A stretch of DNA of 64,000 nucleotides from an uncultured bacterium (lineage in GTDB: Bacteria; Zixibacteria; MSB-5A5; CAIYYT01), in NCBI GenBank assembly GCA_903930455.1, contig CAIYYT010000002.1, positions 6,479 through 70,478 of the forward strand, read 5' to 3'. Below are positions 8,127-22,704 of this stretch, in pieces. The stretch's first letter is position 1; each line of letters opens with the position of its first letter. The notes below the pieces were generated by a model. That model worked only from the letters and a program-made list of their open reading frames with translations. It made no database searches and was not told the origin of the DNA. The position numbers were made by a program, and so were the translations under genes.

Positions 8127-8626
8127 AAACTCTCCTTGTCCCGGTGGAACCGATAGTTGTGAATCGTTTATTGTCTCCGAAGAGTGAAGAAAGTGCGAAT
8201 CGAGTCCAAAGCTGGCACTCGTCTCGCGATCCTGCAAGTATACTCTCAATGTCCCAAATCCCCGTAAAACCACACATTTTGTCGCCAGCGTGGAACTTGA
8301 CAAAAAACGCAGTGCCCTAGTTTCGGGCGGACAAGACGACAAGAAACATCTTTACCCATAAAAAGATATGCGGGTCTACGCAATAGTCAATGGAGATCAA
8401 TACGATAAAATTGTGTACAAATTACGTATCGTAAATACGTAACAGCAATCAATCGGAGGTTGGAGGTTCGAGACACCATCCGAGATGTACATCCATCACT
8501 GTGCGCTAGCGCAAGTGTTCGTGGCAGTCATTTTGTCGCTAACTTGAAGAGCCTTTGCGTAGGAGGAAAACACTTCGGGGGTTAGACGATCACGTGATTT
8601 CAATCGGGGTTGTTACCATTCTCTGA

Positions 8627-8671
8627 AGAATCTTGGAATCGTCGTCATTGACTGTGTGATTCCAAGATTCT
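8627..8671. repeat. Perfect 14-bp inverted repeat (agaatcttggaatc ... gattccaagattct) with a 17-nt spacer, about 80 bp downstream of the HerA-like gene stop. Candidate terminator, operator or island-boundary site.
   Basis: Read directly: 8627-8640 is the exact reverse complement of 8658-8671. Confidence 0.5.
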
Positions 8672-8751
8672 CTTTATCCGGGGTTTGAAATGGCTTGTTG
8701 TTGGGGTATTCGTGGGTTTTGGCCTTGGAAGCAGTGAAATAGGTTCGTCAT

Positions 8752-10728
8752 TCAAAGTTTGACAAGTTGCTGAACTGAGGTGAGCAGAACCCTTGATTGT
8801 TCAAAATCAGTCGTGAGTTGGTTCTGGATCTGGATTAGGCATTCTGGTGTTGTTGCCATGATGATTATTGATTCGAAGTCCTTCTTCAGGTTCTTTTCGA
8901 GGTTCTTTTTCCAGTCTGATTTGCCGGTTTCGATTTCTACTGCTGTTCGTTTGCCGTCTTTTTCGATGACGATGTCTGTGTAGCCGTTCACTGGTTCTTC
9001 GATGAGGACTTTGTATCCCAAAGTTTCATAGTGTTCGGCCACTTTCTGTTTCCAGAATTTGTGTTCGAGTCCTTCGTTGAATCGCACTGGCGGCTTCTGG
9101 TGTCCGGATTGTGATAGCTGTTGCCAGCCGTCTTGGGTGATGTCGAGGAGTACCATTCTTCCGCTTTTTGTCAGTATGCTGACTGGTTCGATCAGTTGTT
9201 TCTCGATTAGGGATTTCTTGATGGTGTCGCCGTTTCTTCTGCTGACTCTCAATCTTCTGTAGCGTTCTACGACTCCCGAGAAAGGATGACTGGCGATCTC
9301 GAGCAGTAGTGCCTGTTCTCGTTCGTTGAGTTTCGCGGTGAAATCCTTTTTCGGAGGGGGCTCGATCTGAGCTGCTTGATTGCGGAGAACGTTTCTATAC
9401 GCCATCATGGCCTTGAGTTTTTGGTCGTCTACTGCTCCCTTGGGTACTTTGCAGTGGGAAATGACGACTTCAAATGGCTGAAGCCATCTTCCTTGTAGCT
9501 TTACGACCGCCGCTCCGATGGGTAAGCGGCCGAGTAGTTCGTTGTCTTCGTCCTTCATCAGCATAGCCGCAGCAACAGCATTGACGTCGAGTCGGTGTTT
9601 CAAGTTCATCGTGATGGTAGTGTAGGAGTTGCCCAATGCGGGTATGGAGATCAAGCTGGGGTGTTGGTCGACGAGGACTATGGCTTCGCCGAGTTCTCTG
9701 ATTTCCCTCAAGATGGTGTCGGTTACTGCTTCTCCTCCTGATCCTCCGGGCTTTTTGAGTAGTATGTGGTGTGCTTCTTCGATGAAGATGACGTGTTTGA
9801 AGCACTCCCTGTCCGGCTGGACTAGGCGATAGTGGTGTATCCAGAGAAGCATGGATTCGATGATCAGGTTCTTGTCATTGTTGGTCAAAGCATCAAGCTC
9901 AAGAATAACGTTTCTGTCAAGTAGGCTTGCCAAGTTTGGCTGGCTGGAAGTGTTGACTACTTCGCCCATGGGGCCAAAGCAGATGGACTTGATTCCTCTC
10001 ATGGTGGAGTCCATCCAGAGCGCCTTTCTGCCCTTGACCGGGTTGTCCTCAAGCCACTTCAAAACGTCTATGAAGGTGGGGTACTTCTGGGGGGTGCCCT
10101 CGTAAACACCAAATTGCTCGTAAACTGCATTCAATGCCTCCTGGAGCAAGAACATGACTCCCTCACCCAAGTAATAGGCGCCGGCGATGATCTCGATCAG
10201 TTTCTTGAGCCAGACTTTGGGATCAGTGCCCGTTGGAGGAATCAAGGGGTTGAAAACCATGGGGGAGGTGTTTCTACCAACAGTGTACACCAATATACTC
10301 TCGTCAGTCATGGCTAAGAGGTCTCGGTAGTTGCGTTTCCAGTCAAAGATCAAGAATGGCTTCTTCCTTGCCAAAAGGCTCTTGAGTAGAATGAAGACCG
10401 TGTTGGTCTTACCAGCACCACTTCTTCCAAAGATGGCTGTGTGCTGTATCCATTCGTCTTCCCGCAAGCCAAACTGGTGGTAGTTTCGTCCTGAGTAGTG
10501 GATTGTTCCGATGGGGTATTCGCCGTGGGCGGTGTCCTTTGGCGGGACTGAGAGATAGGTTTCGGGGCTGTCGACTGTCGAGCCGAGGCGTTTTACTGCC
10601 ATGAGCCGTATTGCTGCTTCGATGTCTCTTCTGCCGTCTTGGTCTTCGGTGAGGTAGGCGAGGTAGTACTGGTCGGCTTTCTTGCCGATGAGTGGTTTCA
10701 ATTGTCTGCAGAGTTCCTGGACGTCCAT
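8752..10728 (-). CDS. HerA/FtsK-superfamily (DUF87-like) ATPase fused to a C-terminal winged-helix and PD-(D/E)xK (Hjc/Mrr-like) nuclease-like domain. An alternative TTG start lies at 10734.
   Basis: Walker A FGRSGAGKTNT. Walker B HVIFIEEAHHIL. HerA-type downstream motif LVDQHPSLISIPALGNSYTTITMNLKHRLD. C-terminal ...NEREQALLLEIASHPFSGVVERYRRLRVSRRNGDTIKKSLIEKQL (wHTH-like) and GYTDIVIEKDGKRTAVEIETGKS (GxxD...E.K nuclease core). Its start lies 2 nt after the upstream gene's TGA. Confidence 0.8.
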   Translation of the reverse strand: MDVQELCRQLKPLIGKKADQYYLAYLTEDQDGRRDIEAAIRLMAVKRLGSTVDSPETYLSVPPKDTAHGEYPIGTIHYSGRNYHQFGLREDEWIQHTAIFGRSGAGKTNTVFILLKSLLARKKPFLIFDWKRNYRDLLAMTDESILVYTVGRNTSPMVFNPLIPPTGTDPKVWLKKLIEIIAGAYYLGEGVMFLLQEALNAVYEQFGVYEGTPQKYPTFIDVLKWLEDNPVKGRKALWMDSTMRGIKSICFGPMGEVVNTSSQPNLASLLDRNVILELDALTNNDKNLIIESMLLWIHHYRLVQPDRECFKHVIFIEEAHHILLKKPGGSGGEAVTDTILREIRELGEAIVLVDQHPSLISIPALGNSYTTITMNLKHRLDVNAVAAAMLMKDEDNELLGRLPIGAAVVKLQGRWLQPFEVVISHCKVPKGAVDDQKLKAMMAYRNVLRNQAAQIEPPPKKDFTAKLNEREQALLLEIASHPFSGVVERYRRLRVSRRNGDTIKKSLIEKQLIEPVSILTKSGRMVLLDITQDGWQQLSQSGHQKPPVRFNEGLEHKFWKQKVAEHYETLGYKVLIEEPVNGYTDIVIEKDGKRTAVEIETGKSDWKKNLEKNLKKDFESIIIMATTPECLIQIQNQLTTDFEQSRVLLTSVQQLVKL

Positions 10729-10730
10729 TT

Positions 10731-11462
10731 TCAATCATTGATCAGTTTTTGTCTGTTCGCTTGGGTGTCGATCTGCTGCTTTAGCTCGAGCAACTGCCCT
10801 TGCAGCCGGCTGACGTCTCGCCAGCAGGCGACTTGTTCAAAGCGCTTTTCTTGTTCGAAGGTGATCAGTTCCTTTTCGAAGAAGGATTTGCGCTTGTCAA
10901 TGACTGGCAGTGCTCCGAGCTCGAAAACGTCGAGTTGATCCAAGACTGAATTGGCACGACTGATTCGTCCGTCAATCTCATAAAGATTGCTGTCACGGAT
11001 GGAGAGGCGCTCGTAGATCTGCTCCAAAATACCCTTGGAGGAGTTCAGCAGTACTTCCTTCTTGGAATCAAGAAACCTATCAATAGGATCATTTGCCTTG
11101 ACGATGGAATCGAGACCAGGATTATCACTGGCCAACTTTGGACTTGCGACTGGCAGGTAGTGTTCATCGACGCCGAGAAGATACGGGTAGCCGAGTAGTC
11201 TTGAACAAGTTGAGAAAATTTGTGGAGCTGTATCTAAAACGAGTTTCTCGTGTCCCATGGGGTTGTAAGGATTGACATAGTTGAAGATCATGGTTACCAC
11301 CTGAAATGTCTTGACTATCCAGTGGTAATCAGCGCAAGTATATAAATGTTCCGATTTCGCAGTCTTTCGAACGATATGGACGAGTTTTTCCATCGCGTGA
11401 ACACCGAACGGTTCAGAGCAGACCGGCCTGAGGTACTCAGCAGCACTAGCAAGCATTGGCAC
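10731..11462 (-). CDS. Hypothetical protein, partner of the HerA-like ATPase (operonic, coupled). The true start may be the internal ATG at 11291 (186 aa), which is preceded by AGGTGG.
   Basis: ORF with a coiled-coil-like C-terminus (...RLQGQLLELKQQIDTQANRQKLIND). The internal ATG at 11291 sits in the motif CAGGTGGTAACCATG (strong SD + ATG). No recognisable family. Confidence 0.6.
   Translation of the reverse strand: MPMLASAAEYLRPVCSEPFGVHAMEKLVHIVRKTAKSEHLYTCADYHWIVKTFQVVTMIFNYVNPYNPMGHEKLVLDTAPQIFSTCSRLLGYPYLLGVDEHYLPVASPKLASDNPGLDSIVKANDPIDRFLDSKKEVLLNSSKGILEQIYERLSIRDSNLYEIDGRISRANSVLDQLDVFELGALPVIDKRKSFFEKELITFEQEKRFEQVACWRDVSRLQGQLLELKQQIDTQANRQKLIND
11278..11370. repeat. About 90-bp repeat, copy 1. 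It overlaps the 5' region of ORF 10731..11462 and contains a TATATA-like box, an AGGTGG SD and the ATG. It is nearly identical to 14608..14700.
   Basis: By-eye alignment: tagttgaagatcatggttaccacctgaa[a/t]tgtcttgactatccagtggtaatcag[c/a]gc[a/g]agtatataaatgtt is shared, with 3-5 mismatches over about 80 bp. Confidence 0.7.
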
Positions 11463-11647: not shown

Positions 11648-14323
11648 CTATCTCAGCAGCAGCATTTTGTTGGTTTCCGATGCGTTTCCGGCCTTCAACC
11701 GGTAGAAATAGATTCCGCTGGCCACCAAACGCCCCCAATCATCTGTTCCATCCCAAGTGGTTGTATATGAGCCCGCATTCTTCGACTCATCGATAAGCAT
11801 TCGGACCTTTCGGCCGAGATTATTGAAAATAGTTATGGAGACGTGAGAGCGGCCTAGAATGCTATATTCAATTATCGTCGCTGGATTGAAAGGGTTCGGG
11901 TAATTCTGAGAAAGCCTCGCAGATTCTGGCAGCGGCTGCAATCCGTCATCTATCACGTCCGTGGCACTTCCTTTGAACCACCGCGCAAGATGGGCTGACA
12001 CTTTCCCCCCAGCTATTGTAAATCTTCCTCCCGCGATCAGATCATTGCCATAGGTTGTGAGAGCAGAAACGAAACCGTTCATCCCTGAACCGAGCGGTGA
12101 CCAAATAGTGTCATCCCATGCAGCAATATAGCTGGCTGTGACTTCTCCTGCTGACCAAAATTTTCCACCTGCAATCAACCTGTTCCTATGGACCGCTAAT
12201 GCGGAGACATATCCACCCATCCCTGAGCTCAAGGAGGACCAAGAGTTTCCGTCCCAAGCAGCTATGTATCTGACCAGGTTGTTTCCTCCTCCTCCCGCTG
12301 TCTCAAACTCTCCTCCAGCAATCAGCTTGTTGTTGAAGACGGTGAGGGCATTGACAGCGAAGTAATACCCACCCGTCCCTGAGCCAAGTGACGTCCAAGA
12401 AACGCCATCCCAAGCTGCGATGCCGGCTCGAGGAACACCCCCAGCAATGTTGAAATATCCTCCGACAATCAGCTCCCTGTCATAGATCGCCAGGGCACGG
12501 ACTTCGCCATTTGTCCCAGAACTGAGCGGAGACCATGAGCTGCCATCCCAGGAAGCAATAAAACTAGAGGCTACGCCCCCCTCCCACGCAAGCAATCCGC
12601 CCGCGATCAACTTGTCGTTGTAGACCGTGAGAGCATAGACGGGGCCATCCATTCCTGAGCCGAGGGTCGACCAAGAGTTGCCGTCCCAGGCGGCAATGTA
12701 ACCGACGCTGACCCCGCCTGCTGAGTGAAAACTCCCCCCCGCTATCAGCTTCTGATTATAGACAGTGAGAGCATTTACGCTTGGTCGACCATAGTTGGCG
12801 CTCATTCCTGGGCCGAGCGATGACCAGTTAGTGCCGTCCCAAGACGCGATGCAATTGACCCTGATACCTCCCGCCATGATGAACTCTCCCCCTACGATAA
12901 GCTTGTCATCATAAATTGTGAGAGCATAGACTGGACCATCCATTGCAGTCCCTAGCGGCGTCCAAGAAGTACCATCCCATCCAGTAATGTTATGGGTAGC
13001 GAAATCTCCTGCATTCTGGAATTGTCCCCCAGCGACCAATTTGCCGTCATAGGACGTGAGGGCCAACACCATGCCTGAAGTTCCCTGGCCCAGTGGTGAC
13101 CAAGATGTACCATCCCAACTGGCGATGTTCTGGGTCGAGATCCCCCCCGCATTATAGAATTTACCTCCGGCGATCAGTTTGTCATCATAGGACGTGAAGG
13201 CAAGCACCATGTCAGTAGTTCCCTGGCCCAGTGGTGACCAAGATGTACCATCCCATCCAGCAATATTATAGGTAGCGACACCTCCCGCTCCCCAGAACAA
13301 CCCTCCAGCGATTAACTTGTCATGATAAACCGTGAGAGTTCGGACAATACCATAATCGCTTATCCCTGTGCCGAGAGTTGACCAAGACGTGCCATTCCAA
13401 GCAGCGATTCTGCTGGCCGGGTCGCCTCCGGCCTCGGAAAAGTTTCCTCCCGCGATAAGACTACCGTTGTAGACTGTAAGAGCCTCGACAACCGAATTCA
13501 TCCCCGACCCAAGCGGCGACCAAGAACTACCATCCCAGGAAGCAATGTGGCGAACCGAATCGCCGTCAACCACGGAGAAGTTTCCTCCCGCGATAAGCCG
13601 CCCGCTATAGACCGTGAGACTTGCGACGACCGAATTCATCCCCGATCCAAGTGGCAACCAGGAGCTGCCGTCCCAAGCTGCGATGTGGTAAGCCTCAATG
13701 CCTCCTGCATTGGTAAAGAACCCTCCGGCTACTAGCCTATTACCATAGACTGCGAGAGCATAGACCTCGCCGTTCATCCCTGTGCCGAGCGTTGACCAGG
13801 AAGTGCCGTTCCAGGCAGCGATTCTGCCGGCAAAAACGGTGCCTGCCAGAGCGAAGCCACCTGCGACGATCAACTGACCATTGTAAACAGCAAAAGCGTA
13901 AACCAGACTATCGACCCCTTGAAATGATGGTGAAATGCTGTTATCCCAATAGATGTCATCAGGGTGATCGGTTGGCGAAGCAGGAGAAGCAGGGCGAAAC
14001 ACTGGCTGACCTGTGGAATTGTCAAATGCGGAGGTGAAACCTCTCAAGTCCAACGGTCCCTGATAACCTGAACGCTGTGCAGCTTCAAGTTCGAATCGTC
14101 CGTCAGGCTTGAGAAACTCCCCGATGCTTCTGCCGGAGGCCTTGTCTGTGTCATCAGTTGCATTCGCCTTGAAGAACCCGCAGCCATCCCATTGCCCCAT
14201 GTTTTTCGTGAATGCCAGTGGCATCTTTTTGAGTGTTTCAGCGGTTATCTGTGATGCTTGCACTTTGTACGCGAACAATAGGCTACAGAGCCCAAGCGCG
14301 GTGAATAGGATCGCTTTTTTCAA
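11648..14323 (-). CDS. Secreted beta-propeller-type repeat protein (14 or more tandem ~50-aa WDG(T/S)SWSxLGxG...YALxVYxxxLIAGGxF repeats) with a T9SS C-terminal sorting domain. TTG start.
   Basis: N-terminal signal MKKAILFTALGLCSLLFA. Long tandem repeat array. C-terminus LSQNYPNPFNPATIIEYSI...GIYFYRLKAGNASETNKMLLLR (T9SS CTD). TTG start with GGGAGG SD; the N-terminus is shared with 14798..17164. Confidence 0.9.
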   Translation of the reverse strand: MKKAILFTALGLCSLLFAYKVQASQITAETLKKMPLAFTKNMGQWDGCGFFKANATDDTDKASGRSIGEFLKPDGRFELEAAQRSGYQGPLDLRGFTSAFDNSTGQPVFRPASPASPTDHPDDIYWDNSISPSFQGVDSLVYAFAVYNGQLIVAGGFALAGTVFAGRIAAWNGTSWSTLGTGMNGEVYALAVYGNRLVAGGFFTNAGGIEAYHIAAWDGSSWLPLGSGMNSVVASLTVYSGRLIAGGNFSVVDGDSVRHIASWDGSSWSPLGSGMNSVVEALTVYNGSLIAGGNFSEAGGDPASRIAAWNGTSWSTLGTGISDYGIVRTLTVYHDKLIAGGLFWGAGGVATYNIAGWDGTSWSPLGQGTTDMVLAFTSYDDKLIAGGKFYNAGGISTQNIASWDGTSWSPLGQGTSGMVLALTSYDGKLVAGGQFQNAGDFATHNITGWDGTSWTPLGTAMDGPVYALTIYDDKLIVGGEFIMAGGIRVNCIASWDGTNWSSLGPGMSANYGRPSVNALTVYNQKLIAGGSFHSAGGVSVGYIAAWDGNSWSTLGSGMDGPVYALTVYNDKLIAGGLLAWEGGVASSFIASWDGSSWSPLSSGTNGEVRALAIYDRELIVGGYFNIAGGVPRAGIAAWDGVSWTSLGSGTGGYYFAVNALTVFNNKLIAGGEFETAGGGGNNLVRYIAAWDGNSWSSLSSGMGGYVSALAVHRNRLIAGGKFWSAGEVTASYIAAWDDTIWSPLGSGMNGFVSALTTYGNDLIAGGRFTIAGGKVSAHLARWFKGSATDVIDDGLQPLPESARLSQNYPNPFNPATIIEYSILGRSHVSITIFNNLGRKVRMLIDESKNAGSYTTTWDGTDDWGRLVASGIYFYRLKAGNASETNKMLLLR

Positions 14324-14352
14324 AATGCCTCCCGGCGAAGTATGATGACTTA

Positions 14353-14388
14353 CTGAACAAGGATAATTAATATGGCTGAATTGTCAAG
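14353..14388 (-). promoter_or_regulatory. Sigma70-like promoter candidate for the 11648..14323 gene: -35 TTGACA (14388..14383), 17-nt spacer, -10 TATCCT (14365..14360). It is conserved upstream of the paralog at 14798..17164.
   Basis: Hexamers read on the minus strand. The about 85-bp upstream/leader region 14324..14420 is about 90% identical to 17165..17260. Confidence 0.45.
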
Positions 14389-14489
14389 GCAAAGCGTCGC
14401 CGATGTACATCCAAGGTCACCTACCGTAGTCGTCGAGGGGCGTTTAGTGATTGTGGGTGTTGGTTGTGGGGTGAGAAGGGGCCGTTTTG

Positions 14490-14700
14490 GGCTCCTTCCC
14501 TGTGCTGTCGGCTATGCTTCAACGTTCAGATATGCCCCTATTGCGGTTACTTCTCATCTGATGAGCGCCCCAGCCAGTGACATCAGGTCGTAAGTGTCGT
14601 TGTCGTAGTTGAAGATCATGGTTACCACCTGAATTGTCTTGACTATCCAGTGGTAATCAGAGCGAGTATATAAATGTTGTGATTCAGCAGTGGTGACACG
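14490..14700 (-). pseudogene. Hybrid gene fragment. The 5' end resembles the N-terminal region of ORF 10731..11462 (...HLYTRSDYHWIVKTIQVVTMIFNY) and the 3' end resembles the C-terminus of ORF 17342..18721 (DNDTYDLMSLAGALIR*EVTAIGAYLNVEA). An in-frame stop interrupts it.
   Basis: Minus-strand translation of 14490..14700 compared with ...HLYTCADYHWIVKTFQVVTMIFNYVNPYNP (gene at 10731..11462) and ...NNDIYDLTSLARAIIKGEITQAGAYLNVEA* (gene at 17342..18721). Confidence 0.5.
14608..14700. repeat. About 90-bp repeat, copy 2 (see 11278..11370). It abuts the decayed C-terminal fragment of a paralog of 17342..18721.
   Basis: By-eye alignment with 11278..11370. Confidence 0.7.
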
Positions 14701-14797
14701 CCACTGGGTGTGCCGTACAGCTTCGATGACTTGTCAAAAAGAAAAACCGGAAGCCGCCCTCTAAACTCCCGGTCATCAGTTCACTCAGCGTCCTTGC

Positions 14798-17164
14798 TTA
14801 CTTGCACCCCGCACACGGTGCCAGTCCGCCAGAGAATATGTACGCAATCAGATACACCGCGTCCGAAATATCAACCGACCCACTGCAATTGGCGTCTCCG
14901 GATTGATATGGGCAAGGCTCTGGGCCACCCCCAAAGATATAAGCAATCAGATATACAGCGTCTGAGATATCAACGCTCCGACTGCCGTCAGCGTCACCGC
15001 AGAGCTGTGGTTCGCTGAAGGCACCAAACTTGGTCACGCATGCGAGATACGGACCGTTGCCTGCCGACTGGTATGGATTGAGAAGCGGAAAGTCCGCCGA
15101 CCAAGTCATTCCTGTTACATAGGCGTTGCCCCCATTGTCAATTGCGATGTGTGGACAGTAAGCTCCTTCCCCGTCCATGCCACTGCCGCCGAGGTAGGTG
15201 CTGTATTCAAGCGATCTTCCGCATGGTTTCAGTTTGGTCACGAAAAAGTCCCAGTCACCATGATTCATTGACTGGTATGGATTCTGAATCGGAAAGAGAG
15301 ATGACTTTGTTGCTCCCGCCACGTAGGCATTTCCGACATTGTCTACAGCAATCCCAAATCCTTTGTCATAATCTCCTCCACCAAGGTAGGTGCTATATAA
15401 CAGACTGCTGCCAGAACTTGAGAGTTTGCATACAAAAGCATCGCAATAGCCACCTGCAAACGTCCCCTGATAGGGATTCTGAGTCGGGAAGTTGGAAGAC
15501 CATGTTTCCCCAGTCACATAGGCATTTCCGGTGCCATCGACTGCGATGGCGTGTCCTGCATCCGCCTCTCCTCCACCGAGGTAGGTGCTGTATATAAGAC
15601 TGTTCCCGGCACTGCTCAGCTTGGTTACGAAGGCATCGAATGGGCCACCCTGCAATGTTGCTTGCAACGGATTCTGAGTCGGAAAGTCTGTTGATACAGT
15701 CCGCCCCGTAACATAGGCATTATCGTTGGCATCGATCGCAACTCCATAGCCCTCGTCTTCTCCTAATCCGCCGAGATATGTACTGTAAGCCAGTGTGCTA
15801 CCGGTCGGATTCAGTTTCGTGATGAAGGCGTCGACTAAGCCACCACGAAATGTGGATTGGTAGGAATTTTGGGTGGGGAAATCTCCCGCATAGGTAAGGC
15901 CCGTTACAAAGGCGTTGCCGTTGCCATCGACAGCGATCCCATAGCTTTCGTCATAATCACGGCCGCCTAGGTAAGTGCTGTAGACGAGTGCATTACCGTC
16001 CGCATTTAGCTTGGTAACGAAAGCATCATAATAGTGATGATTCAAGGTTGACTGGAACGGATTCTGCGTCGGAAAGTCCATCGAACCAGTACCACCCGTA
16101 ACGTAGGCGTTGCCACCGTTGTCAACTGCGATGCCCCAAGCGAATTCAAAGTCTTCACCACCGAGGTAGGTGCTATATATCAGACTGTTCCCAGTGGTTG
16201 AGAGCTTTGTTACAAAGACGTCCTGGTTGCCATGGTACGTCTGATAGGGATTCTGAGTCGGGAAATCGATCGACTGGGTCCAGCCCGTTACATAAGCATT
16301 ACCGGAGTTGTCTACTGCAATGCTAAAGGCTTCGTCATAGCCGCTCCCACCTAGCAAGGTGCTATAGATAAGCCCAACATTCAGCGATGTTGATTGCATT
16401 CGGCTCTGATCCGTAGTTTCCAAGGTAACCGTATCCTCTGCTTCTCGCGAAAACAGGGCAGAACCTGAACGCTTATCGTTTGTCGGCCCTGCAAAAGCGA
16501 CTATCACGTCTCCCCACTTGGTTTGCACTAAAAGTGTGCCGCCGGAATCGACCAAAGTCTTTTCGGCGCCTTCGAAGGCTATTTTGACTTGTGCCACATC
16601 TGCTCCCGGCTCCACGATATACGCATACGACGCCTGGCCTGTGCCGTCGCCAGAATATCTTATGTCGATACCGGGATAAATGTCTTTGAGCGTGATCGCT
16701 TCGTAGTTGGGCACATCGGTATGCCATTTCGACGGATCATTACCGATGAAGTAGTTGCACTTGTATTCCAATTGCCCCTCGGCTACAACTTCGGGATTCG
16801 AATTCGCCCCGACGAATTTGGCAGTTAGAATCATCTGCTCGACGGAGTCCCTTTCCTGCGAGAATCGATCAGCCGTGTCAAAGGGGCTAGCGGCGTTCGC
16901 CAGACCAGGCACACTAACTGCACCGCCGCGGTCGATCCGTCTTGTGAATTGGTAGGTCACCCCTTCTTTTGTAAACCACATCGTGGCGCCTCCGGCGCTA
17001 GCGCGGAACAAGACGCGTTCGTCCCACTGGCCCATGTTTTTCGTAAAGGCCAAAGGCATCTTTGCGAGTGTCTTAGTGGTAATTTGTGATGCTTGCACTT
17101 GGAACACGAACAATAAGCTACAAAGTCCTAGCGCGAGCGCAGTGAGTAGGATTGCTTTCCTCAA
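14798..17164 (-). CDS. Secreted SBBP (beta-propeller) repeat protein with two C-terminal dockerin-type repeats. It is a paralog of 11648..14323 at its N-terminus only. TTG start.
   Basis: Signal peptide MRKAILLTALALGLCSLLF. Repeated GxGNAYVTGxTxSxDFPTQNPYQ... units (SBBP-like). C-terminus CGDADGSRSVDISDAVYLIAYIFGGG...GDANCSGSVDISDAVYLIAYIFSGG is a duplicated dockerin-type Ca-binding motif. Confidence 0.9.
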   Translation of the reverse strand: MRKAILLTALALGLCSLLFVFQVQASQITTKTLAKMPLAFTKNMGQWDERVLFRASAGGATMWFTKEGVTYQFTRRIDRGGAVSVPGLANAASPFDTADRFSQERDSVEQMILTAKFVGANSNPEVVAEGQLEYKCNYFIGNDPSKWHTDVPNYEAITLKDIYPGIDIRYSGDGTGQASYAYIVEPGADVAQVKIAFEGAEKTLVDSGGTLLVQTKWGDVIVAFAGPTNDKRSGSALFSREAEDTVTLETTDQSRMQSTSLNVGLIYSTLLGGSGYDEAFSIAVDNSGNAYVTGWTQSIDFPTQNPYQTYHGNQDVFVTKLSTTGNSLIYSTYLGGEDFEFAWGIAVDNGGNAYVTGGTGSMDFPTQNPFQSTLNHHYYDAFVTKLNADGNALVYSTYLGGRDYDESYGIAVDGNGNAFVTGLTYAGDFPTQNSYQSTFRGGLVDAFITKLNPTGSTLAYSTYLGGLGEDEGYGVAIDANDNAYVTGRTVSTDFPTQNPLQATLQGGPFDAFVTKLSSAGNSLIYSTYLGGGEADAGHAIAVDGTGNAYVTGETWSSNFPTQNPYQGTFAGGYCDAFVCKLSSSGSSLLYSTYLGGGDYDKGFGIAVDNVGNAYVAGATKSSLFPIQNPYQSMNHGDWDFFVTKLKPCGRSLEYSTYLGGSGMDGEGAYCPHIAIDNGGNAYVTGMTWSADFPLLNPYQSAGNGPYLACVTKFGAFSEPQLCGDADGSRSVDISDAVYLIAYIFGGGPEPCPYQSGDANCSGSVDISDAVYLIAYIFSGGLAPCAGCK

Positions 17165-17341: not shown

Positions 17342-18721
17342 TTATGCTTCGACATTCAGATATGCCCCTGCTTGTGTGATTTCTCCTTTGATGATGGCTC
17401 TTGCGAGTGAGGTTAGGTCGTAAATGTCGTTGTTGTGGCTGGCTTCGAGTATTGTGTTTCCTCGTAGGTGTTTGGTGGTGTACATGGCGAGGATGAGCTC
17501 TTTTAGGTCGCAGTCGTTGATCACGTTGAATGGGTGTGATTCGCTTAGGCCTGCTGTGGTGTTTATGTAGTGGTTGTGGTTGAAGTAGTCGTCCAGTTCT
17601 GGTTCTTTTTCTCGGTAGACTTTGGCTGCCAGCTTGGCAAGCTTTTCCAACAATTCCTCTTTTCTGCCGGTCATGGCGACTTCGTGGTTTTTGAGCATCT
17701 CTTTGATCATCTCTCCCGAGGCGTTTACTCGTATGAATCCGCCTATGGCGTAGGTGTGTACTCGGTGTTCGGTGAAGGCGGCGTTGGCAGTGCTTGCCTC
17801 TTTTGGGGCGAGGTAGTTGAGGTTGGGGAAGCCGATTTGGAAGTTGCCTTTCTCGATCATCCTTTCGGCTGTTTCGATGTTGACGGTGAAGCAGTATCTG
17901 CCTTTGTCGTGTCGCCAGCGTTCGGCTATTTGTCTTGCTTGTTCTCTGATGGCGTGGCGGGGAACCAGAGATGGTAGCATTCGGATGGTTTCGCCTTTTC
18001 GTGTGCAGGTGTAGATAATGCTCTCCGAGTAGGCGATGTTGCGGTAGCCGTCTGAGCGCATCTGGAAGTGGCTAATTGATTCAGTCAGTTTGAGTTTTCC
18101 TTGGTCGTCGGCGATCTGCCCGAGTACGCTCGCCTGCCTGAAGTTTGTAATCGGCAAGGCCTGACTGATCAGGACGCTTTCTTCATCTTGGAAGTCTTCC
18201 AGGGTGAGTATCTGGCTGAGGTCGTAGCTGTTGATGTCGTTGTAGCCAGAAAGCTTGATCTGCTTGCTCTTGCCCTTCAGGAAGTCCCTGAGCGAGTTGA
18301 AGTCACTGTAAATCCTCGAAAGGAGACTGTAAACTGTTTGGTGAGTCCAGTTGGCTACGAGAGTCCTCTTGGCAATAGCGACCAGCTGCAAGTAGCCGAG
18401 GCCGTCGACGAAATACAAATGGTCGCGGATGTCGGCCAGCATCCTCTCAAACATGGTTCCTTCCCGATAATAAGTTCGTTCAGTTGAGTAATTGATGTCG
18501 TGGCTGTAGCCCAGCTCTTTGAGCTCCGTAATCAATTGATCTGGCGCGTTTAGTCTTTGCAGGGTGGTTTCGATGATGTGGCTTGAGTGGTCGCTGCAGC
18601 CCCAGGGGTGGATGCCTCTTAGCAGGACGTCGGCAAGTGAAACTTCCACGATCTTGAAGGTTAGGCGTTTGAATTCGGGGACTTGCTCGTCTGGTATTAG
18701 TGACAGCTGGATAGTTTGCAT
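17342..18721 (-). CDS. Hypothetical 459-aa protein with a SAP-like motif near its C-terminus. It is the third gene of the vWA-MoxR cluster and overlaps the MoxR gene by 25 nt.
   Basis: ATG start. The segment IKEMLKNHEVAMTGRKEELLEKLAKLAAKV resembles a SAP DNA-binding motif. No other recognisable domain. A decayed paralogous C-terminal fragment lies at about 14490..14607. Confidence 0.7.
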   Translation of the reverse strand: MQTIQLSLIPDEQVPEFKRLTFKIVEVSLADVLLRGIHPWGCSDHSSHIIETTLQRLNAPDQLITELKELGYSHDINYSTERTYYREGTMFERMLADIRDHLYFVDGLGYLQLVAIAKRTLVANWTHQTVYSLLSRIYSDFNSLRDFLKGKSKQIKLSGYNDINSYDLSQILTLEDFQDEESVLISQALPITNFRQASVLGQIADDQGKLKLTESISHFQMRSDGYRNIAYSESIIYTCTRKGETIRMLPSLVPRHAIREQARQIAERWRHDKGRYCFTVNIETAERMIEKGNFQIGFPNLNYLAPKEASTANAAFTEHRVHTYAIGGFIRVNASGEMIKEMLKNHEVAMTGRKEELLEKLAKLAAKVYREKEPELDDYFNHNHYINTTAGLSESHPFNVINDCDLKELILAMYTTKHLRGNTILEASHNNDIYDLTSLARAIIKGEITQAGAYLNVEA

Positions 18722-20211
18722 ACAACTTCACCTCCATTGGCGGTTGATTGGTGATGGTTGGAGATTAGTAATTCGAAGGTCTCGAGGTCCTTCTCGATTG
18801 CTTCTCGGGTCTGCTCGATGTCATTGGGATCAAGGTTTTGCTTTCTGGCGAGCTTGGCAACATGGCTGTAGGCAACGATCTTGGCCAAGTCAGACTGCTG
18901 ATCCAGCAACCCCTCTACCTCCTCGACAAATTCGATGCATTCCCCTTGAAGGTTCGGGATACACTTGCTGGATAGCTTCTCGCCGGAGACCTTGCGGCTC
19001 AAACCCTCCAAAAGCTCCCTGGGAACTGTGCCGGGACGGCGTGCCTCTACTTGCAAAGCCGTATAGGCCAGCAGAGTGATGTCTTGCTCGCCATTGATTA
19101 AGTCATTCCAGGCCTTGGAAGCCGCAAACTCTCCCAGGTTTGATGTGAGTAGGATTTCGGCTTTGCGCATCATGTCTTTGGTCGTGAAGAGCTCGTAGAT
19201 GGTGTTGACCTTTTCCATATTCGAACCCTCAGCGAAAAAGCTACTCAACAGGTCGAAGCAGATCTCCATCTTGTGAACTGCCTCTTCTTTCTTGAGTGAT
19301 TCATCGTTCAAACCGACTGGAATGCTGGATTGGACAACGTAGCGAGCTGACTTGACAAAGTCTGGTATCGTTGTGCTGAGCACTTCGGACTTGGCCAATT
19401 CGATGGCCCGATTGGAGAGGATGTTTCGGTAGATAAAGCCCAGCCTTCTACCATCAAGTGAGATGTCGCCTTTGGATTCCCTCATCAGGAGATCGGCAAA
19501 GCGCGCCAAGAACAAGGAAAGCGTTGAGTACTGCTCTCTTAGGGTGTTGAAGTGTCTTGCTGCGGTGTGGAACATCTGGGTCATCTTCTGACCGATTTCC
19601 TTCACTTCCTGCTTGTCAACTGTGCCACTGGTTTGTCCGTTGTTCCAGACTGAGATGGCAGGAGCATCATCGCCGTTGATGTGTCCGGTGACTTTGATGC
19701 GGTCTGCTTCCTCCATCTGCAAGACATCCGGAGGATAAACAAACAAGGCAAATCGGCCGATCAGTGCTTCGTCGAGTGCCTGGGTGGCTGAGTAGTTCAT
19801 GGGGTTCATGGCTGCCCACACCCATTTGACCTTGGTCTCAAATCCCATGATCTTTCGAGAACGGATAATTTCGAGCCATTTGCTCTGAAGTTCGGGGACG
19901 GCGCGATTGAGTTCGTCTATCAGGACTAGTTCCTTGTCCCAGATGGTGACGTTGCTCGGGACATATTCTACGACTCCCTGTTTCAATTTTTCGATGTTGG
20001 GGAAGCCAAGTATGTCCTCGAACATGCATTTGCTTGCGTCGTAGACGAGTGACTTGCGGTTGAGTGCTTGGCCGATTTTGTTGGCCACGTGGGTCTTTGC
20101 GCAACCATGATTGCCAATCAGTAGTAGCGGGTCGCCTGTCAAGAGCGATGACAGGATTAGGTTTTCGTCTTCGTCTTTCCAGCCGTAGATGCCGAGTGTT
20201 TCGAGTATCAT
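18697..20211 (-). CDS. MoxR-like AAA+ ATPase (AAA_5 family) with a C-terminal extension.
   Basis: Walker A LIGNHGCAKTHV. Walker B with NRA: LVLIDELNRA. Sensor/Arg finger AMNPMNYSATQALDEALIGRF. ATG start with AGGAGA SD. Confidence 0.85.
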   Translation of the reverse strand: MILETLGIYGWKDEDENLILSSLLTGDPLLLIGNHGCAKTHVANKIGQALNRKSLVYDASKCMFEDILGFPNIEKLKQGVVEYVPSNVTIWDKELVLIDELNRAVPELQSKWLEIIRSRKIMGFETKVKWVWAAMNPMNYSATQALDEALIGRFALFVYPPDVLQMEEADRIKVTGHINGDDAPAISVWNNGQTSGTVDKQEVKEIGQKMTQMFHTAARHFNTLREQYSTLSLFLARFADLLMRESKGDISLDGRRLGFIYRNILSNRAIELAKSEVLSTTIPDFVKSARYVVQSSIPVGLNDESLKKEEAVHKMEICFDLLSSFFAEGSNMEKVNTIYELFTTKDMMRKAEILLTSNLGEFAASKAWNDLINGEQDITLLAYTALQVEARRPGTVPRELLEGLSRKVSGEKLSSKCIPNLQGECIEFVEEVEGLLDQQSDLAKIVAYSHVAKLARKQNLDPNDIEQTREAIEKDLETFELLISNHHQSTANGGEVVCKLSSCH

Positions 20212-20456
20212 TGTTTTTTCTCCTATCTTCTTTGCCCCTTTGAGGGCAATGAAAAAGGGGAGATCCTCGCTGATGAGGGTTCTCCCCGTGGTTTAAGTTT
20301 GTTGATGATTGTTAGCTGTTGTTGAATTGAGATGAGTGGAGCTATGGTTTGTGGATGATGTCCCCTTTTCCGTTGCGATGTCGCGCCCCAGTCATGGAGG
20401 AACAGCTGTTAGTGGGGCGGACAGTGATTTGTGGTTTCTTCCTGGTTTTCTCCTTT

Positions 20457-21752
20457 CTATTCGCAGACGTCTGAGAGGTTGACGATGTCGCCGAATTTGG
20501 CAAAGTCCTCGCAGGTGGTTGTGCCGTCGAAGAGGATCGTCAAGGTAACGAGCCCCAAGGCTTTAAGTTGTTTTGACAATTCTTCTGACATGTCGGCGTA
20601 ACCATCGGTAATGATGATTGCCTTTTCGAATCGTCTTTCGAGTATTGATTGGGCTATGCAGTTGAAGTCGGTGCCGTAACTTGTCCTGATTTTGCCTTTG
20701 ATCAGATCTTGCATGGTGGTTTCGACTACTATGTTCGAAAACAGGAACAGCGAGGTGACACTGTTTTTCAGCTTGGATAGGACTCCGATGATATTTGGCA
20801 GGTAATCGTTTACGCTTCCAGAGACGTCAAGGTAGATCGCCAGACCCTTTTCTTCAGAGGTTGGTTTGGATGTGTGGTTGTGGAAGTACCCCGGATAAAA
20901 CCCCGAAGCCAACAGTACCAAGTCGCGTTTGGATGGATACAATGGAATGGGTGAAACTCCCACCCGCTGAACCCGAAAGTACTCCTTGAATCGGTCAAGT
21001 TTGCGCTTGGTCAGAAACTTTTGTAGCAGTACTTTCTTTATTGATAGGTGTGTCTTCAACGCCTCCATAAACAGATCAAGCAGTTCAAGGCTGAATCCGG
21101 CGTTTCTTCCTCCTTTGCCGGCGACGCTGCGCTTCAGGTCTTCGGCGATTTTGGAGAGCAGTTCGTTTGGAAAAGAGGTCTCGTGACTCGATGGGTTTCC
21201 GTCGTGGGAGTGGCTGCCGATCAAGACAACAGTTGATAGTCGTTCGCTTTGGGTCAGGATCTTCAAAGTCTGGATCAACTCTCCAGTCGTGAAATGATCG
21301 TGTTCGTCGTTTTGACTGTATAGCCTTTCGTAGACCTTGCTGTACTTGCCTCGCGACATTTCACTCAAGGGCCGCAGTAGCCCAGGCAGTCCTCGATCCG
21401 GATAAAACTTGCGGAACAGACTGCCGTTGCGGGAATAGTCGGTGTATACTTCGCTGATGACAGCATTGATGATTGCATCAGCAGCAATGTTCTCCAGCTC
21501 ACCATTCTCATAGATGAAGTGGCAGAACATTGGATGCAGCAGCTCGTGAAAGACCAGGCTGAACAAGTCTTCTTTACATGTGATATGCTTGTTGATGAAC
21601 CCTGGATTGTACGACAGTTTGCCGTCAACGGTGATCGCCGCCGTCGGAATCCTGTCATCTTCAACGGTTTCGTTAACGAAGCCGGCGACGAAGCTGTCAA
21701 AGCCGAGAGCATCTTTGAGTACTTCTCTCACGGTTTCGAGATTGATTTTCAT
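20457..21752 (-). CDS. DUF2201-type protein: N-terminal putative metallopeptidase-like domain (HExxH) plus a C-terminal vWA domain. This is the vWA partner of the MoxR ATPase.
   Basis: PTAAITVDGKLSYNPGFI...LVFHELLHPMFCHF...NIAADAIINAVI fits the DUF2201_N pattern (AATDGxxLYYNP...HExLH...WNxAxDxAIN). C-terminal IYLDVSGSV is a MIDAS DxSxS motif, followed by ...AIIITDGYAD. ATG start with AGGAGGT SD. Confidence 0.85.
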   Translation of the reverse strand: MKINLETVREVLKDALGFDSFVAGFVNETVEDDRIPTAAITVDGKLSYNPGFINKHITCKEDLFSLVFHELLHPMFCHFIYENGELENIAADAIINAVISEVYTDYSRNGSLFRKFYPDRGLPGLLRPLSEMSRGKYSKVYERLYSQNDEHDHFTTGELIQTLKILTQSERLSTVVLIGSHSHDGNPSSHETSFPNELLSKIAEDLKRSVAGKGGRNAGFSLELLDLFMEALKTHLSIKKVLLQKFLTKRKLDRFKEYFRVQRVGVSPIPLYPSKRDLVLLASGFYPGYFHNHTSKPTSEEKGLAIYLDVSGSVNDYLPNIIGVLSKLKNSVTSLFLFSNIVVETTMQDLIKGKIRTSYGTDFNCIAQSILERRFEKAIIITDGYADMSEELSKQLKALGLVTLTILFDGTTTCEDFAKFGDIVNLSDVCE

Positions 21753-22232
21753 GGTTACCTCCTTTCAAGGCACAAAATGAAAAATGCCCGATGGTCTGCT
21801 TGAGCAATCCGTCAGGCGGTTGATTTGCGTTCTTCTCGATGAATTCATCGCGAAGAGCCATTGATGAGACTTCTCAGAAAAGACTAAAACGCACTCCGAG
21901 AGCACAACGAAACAGGACACAGTGGAGCGAGATATCTACTTAGCGCCGCCTTTGCTTTCGCTCGTCGCCCAGCGACGAATACAAGGGCAACACGGTGGAA
22001 ACTGAAGTTCAATTCACTCTCACCAAGACAGGCAAAGGTGAAGACGATTGTTAGTTCTCATTTAGTCTGAATATCAGATCAACTCTTGCGAGGATCACAA
22101 ACCAGATTGTTACTATCACCCAGTGGGAATGAGCCAATGCTTATAAATCTTTCGCTTATTAAAACTTAGCTCCATTTGAAAAATTAACAAACCCGAACAA
22201 ACAGAAGCTCCAAGAGCCGGCAAGCAAACGAT

Positions 22233-22325
22233 GAGGAAAAAGGAAAAGAAGGAGAAGGAAGAAAAGAGAAAAGGGAAAAGAGGGAGAGAAAAAAGAGAGA
22301 AGGAGAAAGGGAGAAAAGGAAAAAA
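22233..22325 (+). repeat. 93-nt perfect homopurine (GA-only) tract on the plus strand. Purine-rich bias extends over about 22228..22360. Low-complexity, potential triplex/H-DNA-forming element.
   Basis: No C or T between 22233 and 22325. The ORFs called across it (22116..22376, 22159..22404) translate to F/S/L low-complexity strings and are judged spurious. Confidence 0.9.
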
Positions 22326-22419
22326 CGAGAAACGAAGAAAATGAACTAAAAGCAACGAAGCAACGGACCACATCAAAACAATACATCCAGAACTGAATCA
22401 ACAAAAAGGAATCTAGGTC

Positions 22420-22704
22420 CTAAATCCAAGGAACGATCCGAACGTTCCACCACTTGATCGAAGTGCGAATCTCAACCACCATCACCCTTTCCTCCAACGA
22501 CTTCACCCTTCGACACCCCGGATCCTTCCAAACCACCGAATAATCTCCGACAAGAGGACAACGACCAACCCACTTGTGAATCTGCCAGGAAAACACCCTA
22601 TCGACCTTCCGAGGTGCCTGCGCCTCCAAAATCGCCGCCTTGATCACCTGACTGTAATCAATCTCATACATACCAAATCTTACCTTCTGTTTGTATCCTT
22701 CCAT
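22420..22704 (-). CDS. Small hypothetical protein (94 aa) with a weak RelE/ParE-like motif (VGDYSVVW). Possible toxin-like gene in the mobile-element remnant.
   Basis: ORF only. LVGDYSVVWK resembles the RelE VGDYRLIY core. No clear antitoxin partner. Confidence 0.3.
   Translation of the reverse strand: MEGYKQKVRFGMYEIDYSQVIKAAILEAQAPRKVDRVFSWQIHKWVGRCPLVGDYSVVWKDPGCRRVKSLEERVMVVEIRTSIKWWNVRIVPWI

Follow-up and report, generated by a model that had tools for sequence, protein, structure and literature searches.

A mobile gene pair encoding a HerA-clade ATPase-winged helix-nuclease-fold protein and a small helical partner, with a conserved cis element made up of ATTCC repeats and a covarying hairpin

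We identified a two-gene cassette in the window (the whole 64,000-nucleotide stretch of DNA that was analyzed) in which a small helical protein is encoded directly upstream of a HerA-clade ATPase fused to a winged helix-turn-helix (wHTH) and a PD-(D/E)xK domain (Table 1). The cassette is horizontally mobile, being found mainly on integrative mobile elements, and it is associated with a cis element, conserved and new here, that consists of ATTCC repeats and a covarying hairpin. Our preferred reading, which we hold tentatively, is that of an element-borne, ATP-driven restriction or conflict module that binds, cuts and pumps DNA. The preliminary description of this DNA had proposed a candidate defense or DNA-processing system; defense is plausible from the sequences, and DNA processing seems nearly as likely.

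Table 1 Features of the gene pair, its cis element and the upstream backbone in the window.
Feature	Position	Strand	Basis
HerA-clade ATPase-wHTH-nuclease fusion gene	8752-10734	-	ORF list, junction sequence, homologs
N-terminal domain (residues 1-92)	10459-10734	-	AF2: three helices and a beta hairpin
HerA/FtsK-type P-loop ATPase (residues 93-430)	9445-10458	-	Walker A GRSGAGKT, Walker B IFIEEAHH
Linker, partly disordered, weakly conserved (residues 431-470)	9325-9444	-	pLDDT, identity, motif analysis
MarR-like winged helix-turn-helix (residues 471-541)	9112-9324	-	SRR(K/R)GN segment conserved
PD-(D/E)xK (restriction-endonuclease-fold) domain (residues 556-653)	8776-9069	-	
Partner gene, ~186 aa	10731-11291	-	AGGTGG-ATG start at 11291; ORF open to 11462
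Non-coding cis element, directly 3' of the ATPase stop	8622-8746	-	Covariance model R1, alignments
Hairpin/inverted repeat, AGAATCTTGGAATC - 17 nt - GATTCCAAGATTCT	8627-8671	.	Perfect 14-nt arms
Rest of the conserved 3' flank	8468-8621	-	blastn of the window vs L007-L010, L021, L022
Same-strand element backbone, upstream context	17342-24004	-	Pfam/PHROGs matches, synteny
Replic_Relax gene	23078-24004	-	Pfam/PHROGs
VWA/DUF2201-like gene	20457-21752	-	
MoxR AAA+ gene	18697-20211	-	
459-aa gene of no named family	17342-18721	-	

Both open reading frames exist as first described. The large protein can start at a TTG (10734; 660 aa), which overlaps the partner TGA by 4 nt, or at an ATG (10728; 658 aa) located 2 nt past the partner stop. 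Homologs begin at the ATG position (MDVQE/MEVQE), so the 2-nt spacing given in the preliminary description is right, and their alignment makes 658 aa the more likely length. More than 1900 full-length homologs of the fusion (650-690 aa) were found, and the partner gene lies directly upstream of the ATPase gene in 77 of the 84 related loci that could be evaluated; the pair is thus far above chance expectation. The partner frame as first drawn is over-extended, and the shorter gene in Table 1 is likelier, because most close homologs are 186-190 aa long and because of the start codon listed there.

The partner is a helical, translationally coupled protein with a variable N-terminus and a conserved C-terminal domain of ~125 aa in which one R is invariant and a cW(R/K)D motif occurs. 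An exhaustive profile search yielded 831 clusters, all of 63-259 aa, which were small stand-alone proteins only, with no informative fusions. The family had no match in Pfam, PADLOC, NCBIfam, PHROGs or PDB; a 52-member profile retrieved only coiled-coil noise (prefoldin, NDC80) from PDB and scattered matches from Pfam. Tight coupling to a small protein of no recognizable family, as well as its co-occurrence with HerA-like ATPases, which had been put forward as a check, were therefore borne out by the 2-nt spacing and the 77/84 loci.

The domain calls made at first sight (HerA-type ATPase, wHTH and restriction-endonuclease fold) were recovered as folds and motifs, with the AF2 model of the large protein reaching a pLDDT of 86. 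The N-terminal domain had no family match but has a conserved LKPxxG...YLxED motif and a mean pairwise identity of 0.38. The ATPase domain, with sensor Q357 and R416, shows the features that define the HerA clade within the FtsK-HerA superfamily: Walker A and B motifs, a Gln sensor-1 closing strand 4, and an Arg finger. Its fold matches HerA/VirB4/DndH-C, and it contains a helical insert of 4-5 helices (residues 171-262; 9949-10224). An NCBIfam match to CedD was set aside, as it reflects HerA-clade membership only. In the linker, pLDDT falls below 50 at residues 453-464 and mean pairwise identity is 0.21. No transmembrane segment was found in either protein, the highest Kyte-Doolittle 19-residue means being 1.6 (in the ATPase helical insert) and 0.97 (partner).

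The C-terminal domain has the a-b-b-b-a-b core of the PD-(D/E)xK superfamily, which settles the fold check proposed earlier in favor of a nuclease fold. Its invariant residues are H558, E579, D587, E600, E602 and N611. The acidic residues anticipated for the motif are present and invariant, but the E.K signature is not: the motif reads H558...E579...D587...E600-x-E602, that is, a D...ExE variant of ExK. The canonical Lys position is a Glu (E602) in 76 of 77 sequences, with lysines nearby at K605 (48/77) and K614 (69/77). The replacement of the canonical catalytic Lys makes nuclease activity uncertain. Conservation of the acidic residues across 77 sequences from many phyla indicates purifying selection on a putative active site. 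The C-terminal wHTH-nuclease module is without a current family annotation.

Under the preferred conflict reading, the large protein would assemble into a soluble hexamer, a ring of the HerA type driving double-stranded DNA through it at the expense of ATP. Since every subunit has a winged helix, which would hold or recognize DNA, and a nuclease-fold domain, which would cut it, the enzyme would bind, cut and pump. The small helical partner, kept in fixed ratio through translational coupling, would most likely gate or target the ring. To the benefit of the carrier element and host, the module would then catch and degrade DNA that enters the cell or competes there, be it from a phage, a plasmid or a rival element, along the lines of the 'HerA/FtsK capture' logic. 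The intact architecture and motifs of the ATPase and nuclease-fold domains argue for this reading, as do the invariant acidic residues and the absence of transmembrane segments, whereas the Glu at the canonical Lys position speaks against it.

The gene pair is present, with a patchy distribution, in ~20 phyla of bacteria and in several lineages of archaea, and proteins that are 87-92% identical occur in MAGs labeled as different phyla. The pair is the sole constant unit of these loci while the other genes vary, which again fits a conflict module. Further points in its favor come from the neighborhoods. Three separate lineages (L005, L032, L046) have an N6/N4 DNA methyltransferase (PF01555) built into their operon, although it fails to separate the readings because the DNA-donation operon of the Thermus ICETh1 has one too (PMC5365140). 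An Orc/Cdc6-like AAA+ gene is found at most 8 kb away in 17 of the 38 well-flanked, non-redundant loci (adjacent in ~10), and in L087 and L088 the adjacent genes include TIR, SIR2-TPR and pentapeptide genes; this linkage and adjacency fit the neighborhoods that Rakesh et al. 2024 (PMC10853773) read as counter-invader systems.

Other neighbors weigh against the conflict reading. Instead of known defense genes, the closest ones are for the most part small ORFs without annotation and genes for element maintenance (Orc/Cdc6, recombinases, Replic_Relax, ArdC, CobS/T-like, XRE). No defense-island signature was seen among the 149 nearest neighbors, where PADLOC, which has no model specific to this family, scored only methyltransferases and XRE-type HTH proteins. 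One MAG holds three diverged copies in elements of more than 10 kb, which likewise speaks against it.

In a close rival reading, which we consider possible though doubtful, the large protein would be a TdtA/TraB-like motor for self-mobilization (donation or processing) of the element's own DNA. Its wHTH would read a cis-acting ATTCC-repeat site, its nuclease would open the DNA, perhaps at an extruded hairpin, and the HerA ring would pump the double-stranded DNA of the element, either to the outside of the cell or into some carrier. A single chain would thus join what ICETh1 splits (TdtA and the nucleases) with the role that the C-terminal HTH of TraB plays at clt. Besides the multiple copies in one MAG, element hallmarks (Orc/Cdc6-like, recombinase, Replic_Relax or ArdC genes) in 24 of the 38 well-flanked loci favor this rival. 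Precedents are offered by the REase-NurA-TdtA-MTase operon of ICETh1 and by TraB with its clt repeats (PMC5365140).

A further argument for self-mobilization is the cis element, which is composed of two sequence blocks, A (CTATTTCACTGCTTCCAAGG) and B (ATTTCAAACCCCGGATAAA), and of the hairpin. The covariance model R1 scored 106 bits in the window, 80-124 in the training loci, and 110 and 89 in the held-out loci L018 and L021, respectively; all of these matches sit straight after the ATPase stop. The element follows this stop in every full-length locus of the window clade with downstream sequence except L016. In the 10-bp consensus stem of the hairpin, 94% of cells are paired and 4 pairs show compensatory changes, and the covariation score was matched by 0 of 500 shuffles. 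The same hairpin was found 85-94 nt past the ATPase gene in 14 metagenome contigs. DNA similarity to L007-L009 and L021 (blastn) stops between 8468 and 8627, and the boundary of the mobile element is therefore probably there. A small ORF past the stop (MTNLFH...) was rejected as a gene: it is not conserved in relatives, and the 3' element was consequently treated as non-coding.

In distant homologs, the ATTCC-repeat motif is embedded in the linker-coding region, which is enriched in ATTYC (1.06 vs 0.24 per 100 nt) and in the Ser codon TCC (32% vs 18%, p=4e-7), and in which the nucleotides stay the same while the encoded peptides vary. At least two ATTYC copies were present in 31 of 34 genes with an xRRxG helix and in 16 of 29 with helices of other kinds, compared with 26% of random segments, counts that ignore kinship among the genes, which lessens their weight for the self-mobilization rival. 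A subclade with NRY(K/Q/R)GN has TTGTCAG-type repeats in place of ATTYC. The presence of the motif thus appears to track the recognition segment of the wHTH, and we infer from the sequences that the wHTH may read it. Neither the position of the cis element, within or beside the gene, nor this tracking of the helix is expected under a pure restriction role; both bear more resemblance to a site of the clt, pac or oriT type.

Several observations argue against self-mobilization. Full copies of the cis element without the ATPase gene occur in the related backbones of L093 and L110 (and probably on L122, a 1-kb contig), and hairpin-only copies were found elsewhere too; it may therefore be a component of the backbone or of module junctions and not of the enzyme's own unit. 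A membrane anchor is absent from both proteins, and a membrane protein (c3) is encoded in only 15 of 72 loci, so that there is no conserved membrane partner. The pair is often without a recognizable element gene nearby, and neither Orc/Cdc6 nor integrase genes were detected anywhere in the 64-kb window. No relatives were found among the 2.9 million viral contigs of IMG/VR, which argues against a capsid-packaging version, and PLSDB and a phage collection gave only ATPase-domain matches of ~25% identity. The best plasmid match, from Bacillus sp. PGP15, was rejected as a different architecture, since the protein has 1027 aa and HNH is encoded by a gene of its own.

The preliminary description had named conjugative transfer modules as the setting that would speak for transfer rather than defense. 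Homologs do lie mostly on integrative mobile elements, but T4SS, relaxase and coupling-protein families (VirB4 and VirD4 among them) were absent from the top Pfam families of the 149 nearest neighbors and from the recurrent clusters, an absence that we count for the conflict reading. Replic_Relax, a nicking/replication family, was found in 5 of 72 loci and in the window. A bolder form of self-mobilization, which we regard as somewhat unlikely, would make the pair and the ATTCC/hairpin site a minimal portable DNA-donation unit: the motor would recognize a site placed in, or directly behind, its own gene, cut there, and export or hand over the double-stranded DNA of the carrier element, providing a T4SS-independent transfer route common to many uncultured bacterial phyla and archaea.

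The island setting with mobile-element remnants held up, as the window contains the Replic_Relax gene and a MoxR/VWA triad (17342-21752) that recurs in 7 of the 38 well-flanked loci. The backbone, which also holds a 1.3-kb non-coding region, is syntenic with L009, L010, L021 and L022, and its end is where the pair is located in the lineage of the window, a further point for self-mobilization. We treat this backbone as context and as a candidate part of the system. No tRNA genes or Rfam families were found in the window, and scans for consensus promoters and terminators were uninformative.

A role in element maintenance, through partition or replication initiation, would combine an NTPase, an adaptor and centromere- or origin-like repeats beside the operon; iterons would be bound by the wHTH, and the ring would serve either for segregation, as its motor, or as a replicative helicase. 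This is improbable, as the invariant nuclease-type active site has no role in known partition systems, the replication genes differ in type and are missing from many loci, and we know of no HerA-clade ring serving as a partition motor or replicative helicase. A chromosomal complex for DNA-end processing or repair, analogous to HerA-NurA, is more improbable still: the partner, having no family match, is not NurA, no Mre11/Rad50 linkage was seen among the neighbors, and the distribution is patchy and horizontal, the genes being found in several copies per genome and in element surroundings.

If the conflict reading is true, the family adds a widespread HerA-based architecture with motor, DNA reader and nuclease in one chain together with a new helical regulator, and it makes the 'HerA/FtsK capture' idea, so far based only on genome comparison, accessible to experiment. 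If the pair is self-mobilizing, T4SS-independent transfer of double-stranded DNA, known to our knowledge only from Streptomyces TraB and Thermus TdtA, would extend to many candidate phyla and archaea. In both cases, the nucleotide signal inside a disordered linker, and the way it seems to match the recognition helix of the same protein, are concrete leads open to testing.

Among known systems, DndH/DptH already combines an REase and a HerA/FtsK ATPase in a single chain, and the initial view that a one-chain ATPase-nuclease is unusual was thus overstated. DndH is a protein of ~1700 aa with eight domains, has its REase N-terminal to the ATPase, and works with DndF and DndG; these partners and the extra domains are absent here, no dnd genes were found among the neighbors, and the PADLOC DndH model matches the ATPase region only (1e-5, residues 96-357). 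In the SIR2-HerA (Nezha) and DUF4297-HerA pairs, the effector is separate and HerA lacks a wHTH or nuclease, whereas in the present system the nuclease domain is part of the ATPase chain and the partner is a small helical protein without an enzyme-like family; neither SIR2 nor DUF4297 is adjacent to the ATPase gene in the window. The ATPase also matches the mad8 model of MADS (1e-13, PADLOC), with a marginal match to mad3 (0.031, a 24-residue P-loop stretch), but the pair, scored alone in PADLOC, does not make up the mad1-mad8 gene set. HerA-NurA likewise pairs a HerA-clade motor with a nuclease, but NurA is absent here, a putative nuclease domain of the PD-(D/E)xK fold is fused to the motor, and the context is mobile rather than that of a repair operon. 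Viral FtsK/HerA packaging ATPases differ in their linkage to virus genomes and capsids, which is absent here (IMG/VR).

TdtA, which functions in the transjugation of Thermus thermophilus ICETh1, is a hexameric HerA-family ATPase free of transmembrane segments on an element without a T4SS, and the operon REase-NurA-TdtA-N4/N6 MTase is required for DNA donation (PMC5365140). The likeness lies in a soluble HerA-family motor on an element and in the accompanying PF01555 methyltransferase, which three lineages embed here; TdtA has no DNA-binding or nuclease domain and its nucleases (Tth111II, NurA-like) are separate genes, whereas these domains are fused here (PMC5365140). Compared by description, the two proteins are probably not sequence orthologs, their common ground being the ATPase superfamily. 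TraB of Streptomyces plasmids and AICEs reads 8-bp clt repeats via its C-terminal HTH (PMC5365140). The location of the wHTH, on the C-terminal side of the motor, and the short repeats within or beside the gene recall TraB; however, TraB is FtsK-clade, membrane-associated and without a nuclease, while the protein described here is HerA-clade and soluble, with an invariant nuclease-type site.

Another close counterpart is found in Rakesh, Aravind and Krishnan (NAR 2024, PMC10853773), who predict, computationally, mobile Orc/CDC6-linked 'HerA/FtsK capture' neighborhoods that bring together an ATPase of the HerA/FtsK type (in one version with a 4-helix insert), a wHTH, an REase that looks active and an Orc/Cdc6 AAA+ protein, on one polypeptide or spread over several. 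The capture logic, proposed there for DndH and the Orc/Cdc6-linked neighborhoods, is the interception of DNA during segregation, transfer or packaging. The small helical partner and the cis element have no mention in its text. The Orc/CDC6 protein of the capture systems is described there as 'invariably' having an inactive REase between the AAA+ core and the wHTH; the Orc/Cdc6-like neighbors found here, mostly of 344-438 aa with Pfam AAA (24-180), lid (196-259) and wHTH (281-334) regions, leave no room for such an insert, and the gene is missing from more than half of the loci, including the window. The HerA ATPase, wHTH and REase-fold domain described in that text are common to both, and the helical insert fits its '4-helical bundle' version.

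The preliminary description had reported a two-gene cassette, in which a HerA-type ATPase fused to a winged helix-turn-helix (wHTH) and a nuclease domain is coupled to a small partner, and had proposed it as a candidate defence or DNA-processing system. The cassette was confirmed, with both ORFs present, the domain calls for the large protein upheld, and the pair conserved, and the interpretation was partly supported overall. At the gene junction (...AAT GAT TGA AA ATG GAC...), an ATG at 10728 starts 2 nt past the TGA of the partner, as described for the stop-start gap, and a TTG at 10734 overlaps that stop. Since homologs of the large protein start at the ATG position, its length is probably 658 aa. 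The partner gene likely spans 10731-11291, since most close partner homologs are 186-190 aa long and the ORF contains an internal AGGTGG-ATG start at 11291.

Features of the pair, its cis element, and its surroundings (feature, position, strand, description). Nucleotide positions are those of the window unless preceded by the handle of a comparison locus; residues are those of the large protein.
ATPase-wHTH-nuclease ORF	8752-10734	-	660-aa ORF
Partner ORF	10731-11462	-	243-aa ORF
Cis element, window copy	8622-8746	-	covariance model
VWA/DUF2201-like, MoxR AAA+, and 459-aa gene trio	17342-21752	-	same strand as the pair
Replic_Relax	23078-24004	-	backbone gene in the window
N-terminal helical/hairpin domain	residues 1-92		AlphaFold2 model
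P-loop domain	residues 93-430		AlphaFold2 model
Insert of 4-5 helices within the P-loop domain	residues 171-262		AlphaFold2 model
Disordered linker	between P-loop domain and winged helix		AlphaFold2 model
Winged helix	residues 471-541		AlphaFold2 model
a-b-b-b-a-b-a-b domain (nuclease-type)	residues 556-653		AlphaFold2 model
N6/N4 DNA methyltransferase (PF01555) in operon	L005:9183-10004; L032:6073-6930; L046:1586-2539		three separate lineages, two archaeal

More than 1900 full-length homologs of the large protein were found. When one genome per species was scanned, 219 relatives were retrieved, spanning about 20 bacterial phyla, with archaeal relatives in Hodarchaeota, Nanoarchaeia, and Methanomassiliicoccales MAGs. 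Several MAGs carry two or three copies, and proteins that are 87-92% identical occur across MAGs labelled Calditrichota, Zixibacteria, and Ignavibacteria. IMG/VR yielded no relatives, and neither PLSDB nor the phage collection yielded a full-length one. Profile detection placed the partner immediately upstream of the ATPase gene, in the same orientation, in 77 of the 84 evaluable loci, and the partner-ATPase pair is the only constant unit across loci, all other genes being variable.

The partner ORF has no match in Pfam, PADLOC, or NCBIfam, in line with its earlier assignment to no recognisable family, and comparison with PDB and Pfam gave only coiled-coil noise. Its alignment combines a variable N-terminus with a conserved C-terminal domain of ~125 residues, in which one Arg is invariant and a cW(R/K)D motif occurs. 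An exhaustive profile search returned 831 clusters; among the 150 of these listed, all members are 63-259 aa long, with no additional fused domain.

The large protein matches Pfam DUF87/HerA above the cut-off (5e-11), PADLOC mad8 (1e-13) and HerA (2e-9), and, far below the family cut-off, NCBIfam CedD (7e-20); its last 200 residues have no match in Pfam, PADLOC, or NCBIfam. No membrane-span-like hydrophobic segment was found in either protein. An AlphaFold2 model built with 45 homologs as input (pLDDT 86) resolved the domains listed in the table. Among 77 homologs, E579, D587, and E600 in the nuclease domain are invariant, and H558, E602, and N611 are kept in 75-76. The nuclease fold claimed earlier thus stands on the modelled topology, but the ExK motif does not, as the canonical Lys position is occupied by Glu in 76 of the 77. 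Because of this topology and the conserved acidic residues, we consider the fold confirmed and the putative nuclease active site, an ExE variant by its sequence, to be under selection.

The recurrent neighbours of the pair are an Orc/Cdc6-like AAA+ protein with a lid and a winged helix, tyrosine and serine recombinases, Replic_Relax and ArdC-like proteins, MoxR or CobS-type AAA+ proteins with VWA/CobT-type partners, XRE regulators, and an N6/N4 DNA methyltransferase. Of 38 non-redundant loci flanked by at least 5 kb on each side, 17 contain Orc/Cdc6-like genes, 10 contain recombinases, and 24 contain one or more of four element hallmarks. Most of the 149 nearest neighbours lack a Pfam family, PADLOC recognised nothing among them except methyltransferases and XRE-type proteins, and the scanned neighbours included no T4SS genes. 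In two Planctomycetota-type loci, L087 and L088, the Orc/Cdc6-like gene, an 86-113-aa ORF, the partner, and the ATPase all lie on one strand, as a tight co-oriented block in L087 (8399-12569) and with the Orc/Cdc6 gene ~8 kb upstream in L088. TIR, SIR2-TPR, pentapeptide, ThiF, and NOV_C genes also occur near these two modules. One MAG, CAXXSM01, contains three element copies (L015, L017, and L018) with 88-90% DNA identity over >10 kb, in which the pair is followed by an ArdC-like gene and a CobT/CobS-like pair.

DNA comparison of the window with L007-L010, L021, and L022 defined a shared backbone, encoded on one strand: Replic_Relax, a 1.3-kb non-coding stretch, the VWA/DUF2201-like gene (431 aa, PHROG 1314), the MoxR AAA+ gene (504 aa, near the bpMoxR cut-off), a 459-aa gene, a variable slot, and the pair. 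The trio is also present in L003, L009, L019, L021, L037, L057, and L072, and is replaced by the CobS/CobT-like AAA+/VWA pair in L015, L017, and L018. The slot (11648-17164), bounded by the 459-aa gene and the partner, carries other cargo in L009 (6485-7258) and L021; in the window, it encodes two secreted proteins, an 891-aa beta-propeller bearing a T9SS sorting domain and an SBBP/dockerin protein of 788 aa. The 138-nt tandem repeats at 12962-13688 are ordinary beta-propeller repeats of the former. The non-coding stretch between the VWA-like gene and Replic_Relax (21800-23081) is a possible origin or nick region. Within it lie a AGGAGAAA tract rich in purines (22234-22341) and a hairpin with 21-nt arms (22728-22772), and the 3' end of Replic_Relax (23017-23081) carries CAATTATGTTAC as two direct copies and as inverted copies. 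DNA similarity to related elements stops between 8468 and 8627. The label of mobile-element remnant is fair, since the whole 64-kb window has neither an integrase nor an Orc/Cdc6-like gene.

We favour, tentatively, the reading of the pair as an element-borne, restriction-like bind-cut-pump conflict module. This preference draws on the track record of such cassettes in general, the structural kinship with DndH, the invariance of the nuclease-type site, the presence within the operon of methyltransferases (placed either between partner and ATPase or immediately upstream of the partner), and the comparative argument already published. It is unlikely that the pair serves partition or replication, and a role in repair is more improbable still.

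Immediately 3' of the ATPase gene, the DNA itself is conserved, in the form of a non-coding cis element of 125-143 nt with two ATTCC-type blocks, block A ((C)GATTTCAsnGATTCCAG) and block B (CCTATTCCAttCCnGGATAAg), and a 10-bp hairpin (GAATCTTGGa...tCCAAGATTC). It directly follows the ATPase stop in the window, L001, L003, L007-L009, L011-L015, and L017-L021, and this arrangement is kept in L001, L003, L011-L015, and L017-L020 even though their proteins are just 58-61% identical to those of the window. In the stem, 94% of cells are paired, with compensatory changes in four pairs; its covariation score was reached by 0 of 500 shuffles, and slid controls paired at 27-64%. The covariance model scored element copies at 80-124 bits, every one immediately after the ATPase gene, at loci that were its training loci except for L018 and L021. 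Searching metagenomes for the exact hairpin gave 44 contigs; in 14 of them, the ATPase gene ends 85-94 nt upstream. Full copies without the ATPase were found on related backbones at L093:1442-1582, L110:9889-10029, and probably L122:195-335, and hairpin-only copies without the gene in L092, L095, L108, L109, L115, L116, L119, and L121. The orphan element of L093 and L110 sits between an unrelated 129-130-aa gene and a 97-aa membrane-protein gene, which also comes after the pair in L001 and L003. A close rival to the conflict module, possible if somewhat doubtful, is that the pair is a self-mobilisation motor, which would account better for the cis element.

Distant homologs (at most 48% identity) have no downstream cis element. 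Outside the training loci, almost all sub-threshold covariance-model matches and all nhmmer matches fell at one spot in the ATPase gene, codons ~445-460 of the disordered linker (to ~486 in the longer L043 gene), with the motifs xATTCCnnnnxATTCC and ATTCCn7GATAAA (L005, L026-L028, L032, L034, L037, L040, L044-L048, L057, L059, L068-L070, and others). The linker peptides vary (YSxYS, DSxDS, CSxGS, YFxYL) while the nucleotides are unchanged. Across 55 genes, coding-strand ATTYC is 4.4-fold enriched in the linker (1.06 vs 0.24 per 100 nt). The share of the Ser codon TCC is 32% in the linker vs 18% elsewhere (p=4e-7). By raw counts that ignore shared ancestry, two or more copies of ATTYC, within the linker and the following 200 nt, are present in 31 of 34 genes with an xRRxG wHTH, 16 of 29 with other helices, and 26% of random segments. 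In one subclade (L031, L038, L041, and L060), the wHTH segment is NRY(K/Q/R)GN instead of SRR(K/R)GN, and TTGTCAG-type linker repeats replace ATTCC; this may be protein-DNA co-variation, but it represents a single evolutionary event. We infer that the wHTH reads an ATTCC-repeat site.

Among known systems, DndH joins an REase and a HerA/FtsK domain in a single chain (Rakesh, Aravind and Krishnan 2024, PMC10853773). The same work describes mobile neighbourhoods in which Orc/CDC6 and HerA/FtsK occur together with wHTH and active REase domains, one HerA/FtsK version carrying a 4-helix insert, and proposes them as counter-invader 'capture' systems; it contains no description of the partner or the cis element. 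The ATPase-wHTH-nuclease family shares these domains and, at many but not all loci, the Orc/Cdc6 linkage, but differs in that its Orc/Cdc6-like neighbours lack the 'invariable' inactive REase insert. In Thermus, the ICETh1 operon, which encodes the Tth111II REase, a NurA-like protein, the HerA-family hexamer TdtA, and an N4/N6 methyltransferase, is needed for T4SS-independent DNA donation (PMC5365140), and TraB recognises 8-bp clt repeats via a C-terminal HTH (as summarised in PMC5365140). By analogy with ICETh1 and TraB, DNA donation or mobilisation is an experimentally grounded alternative reading of the pair.
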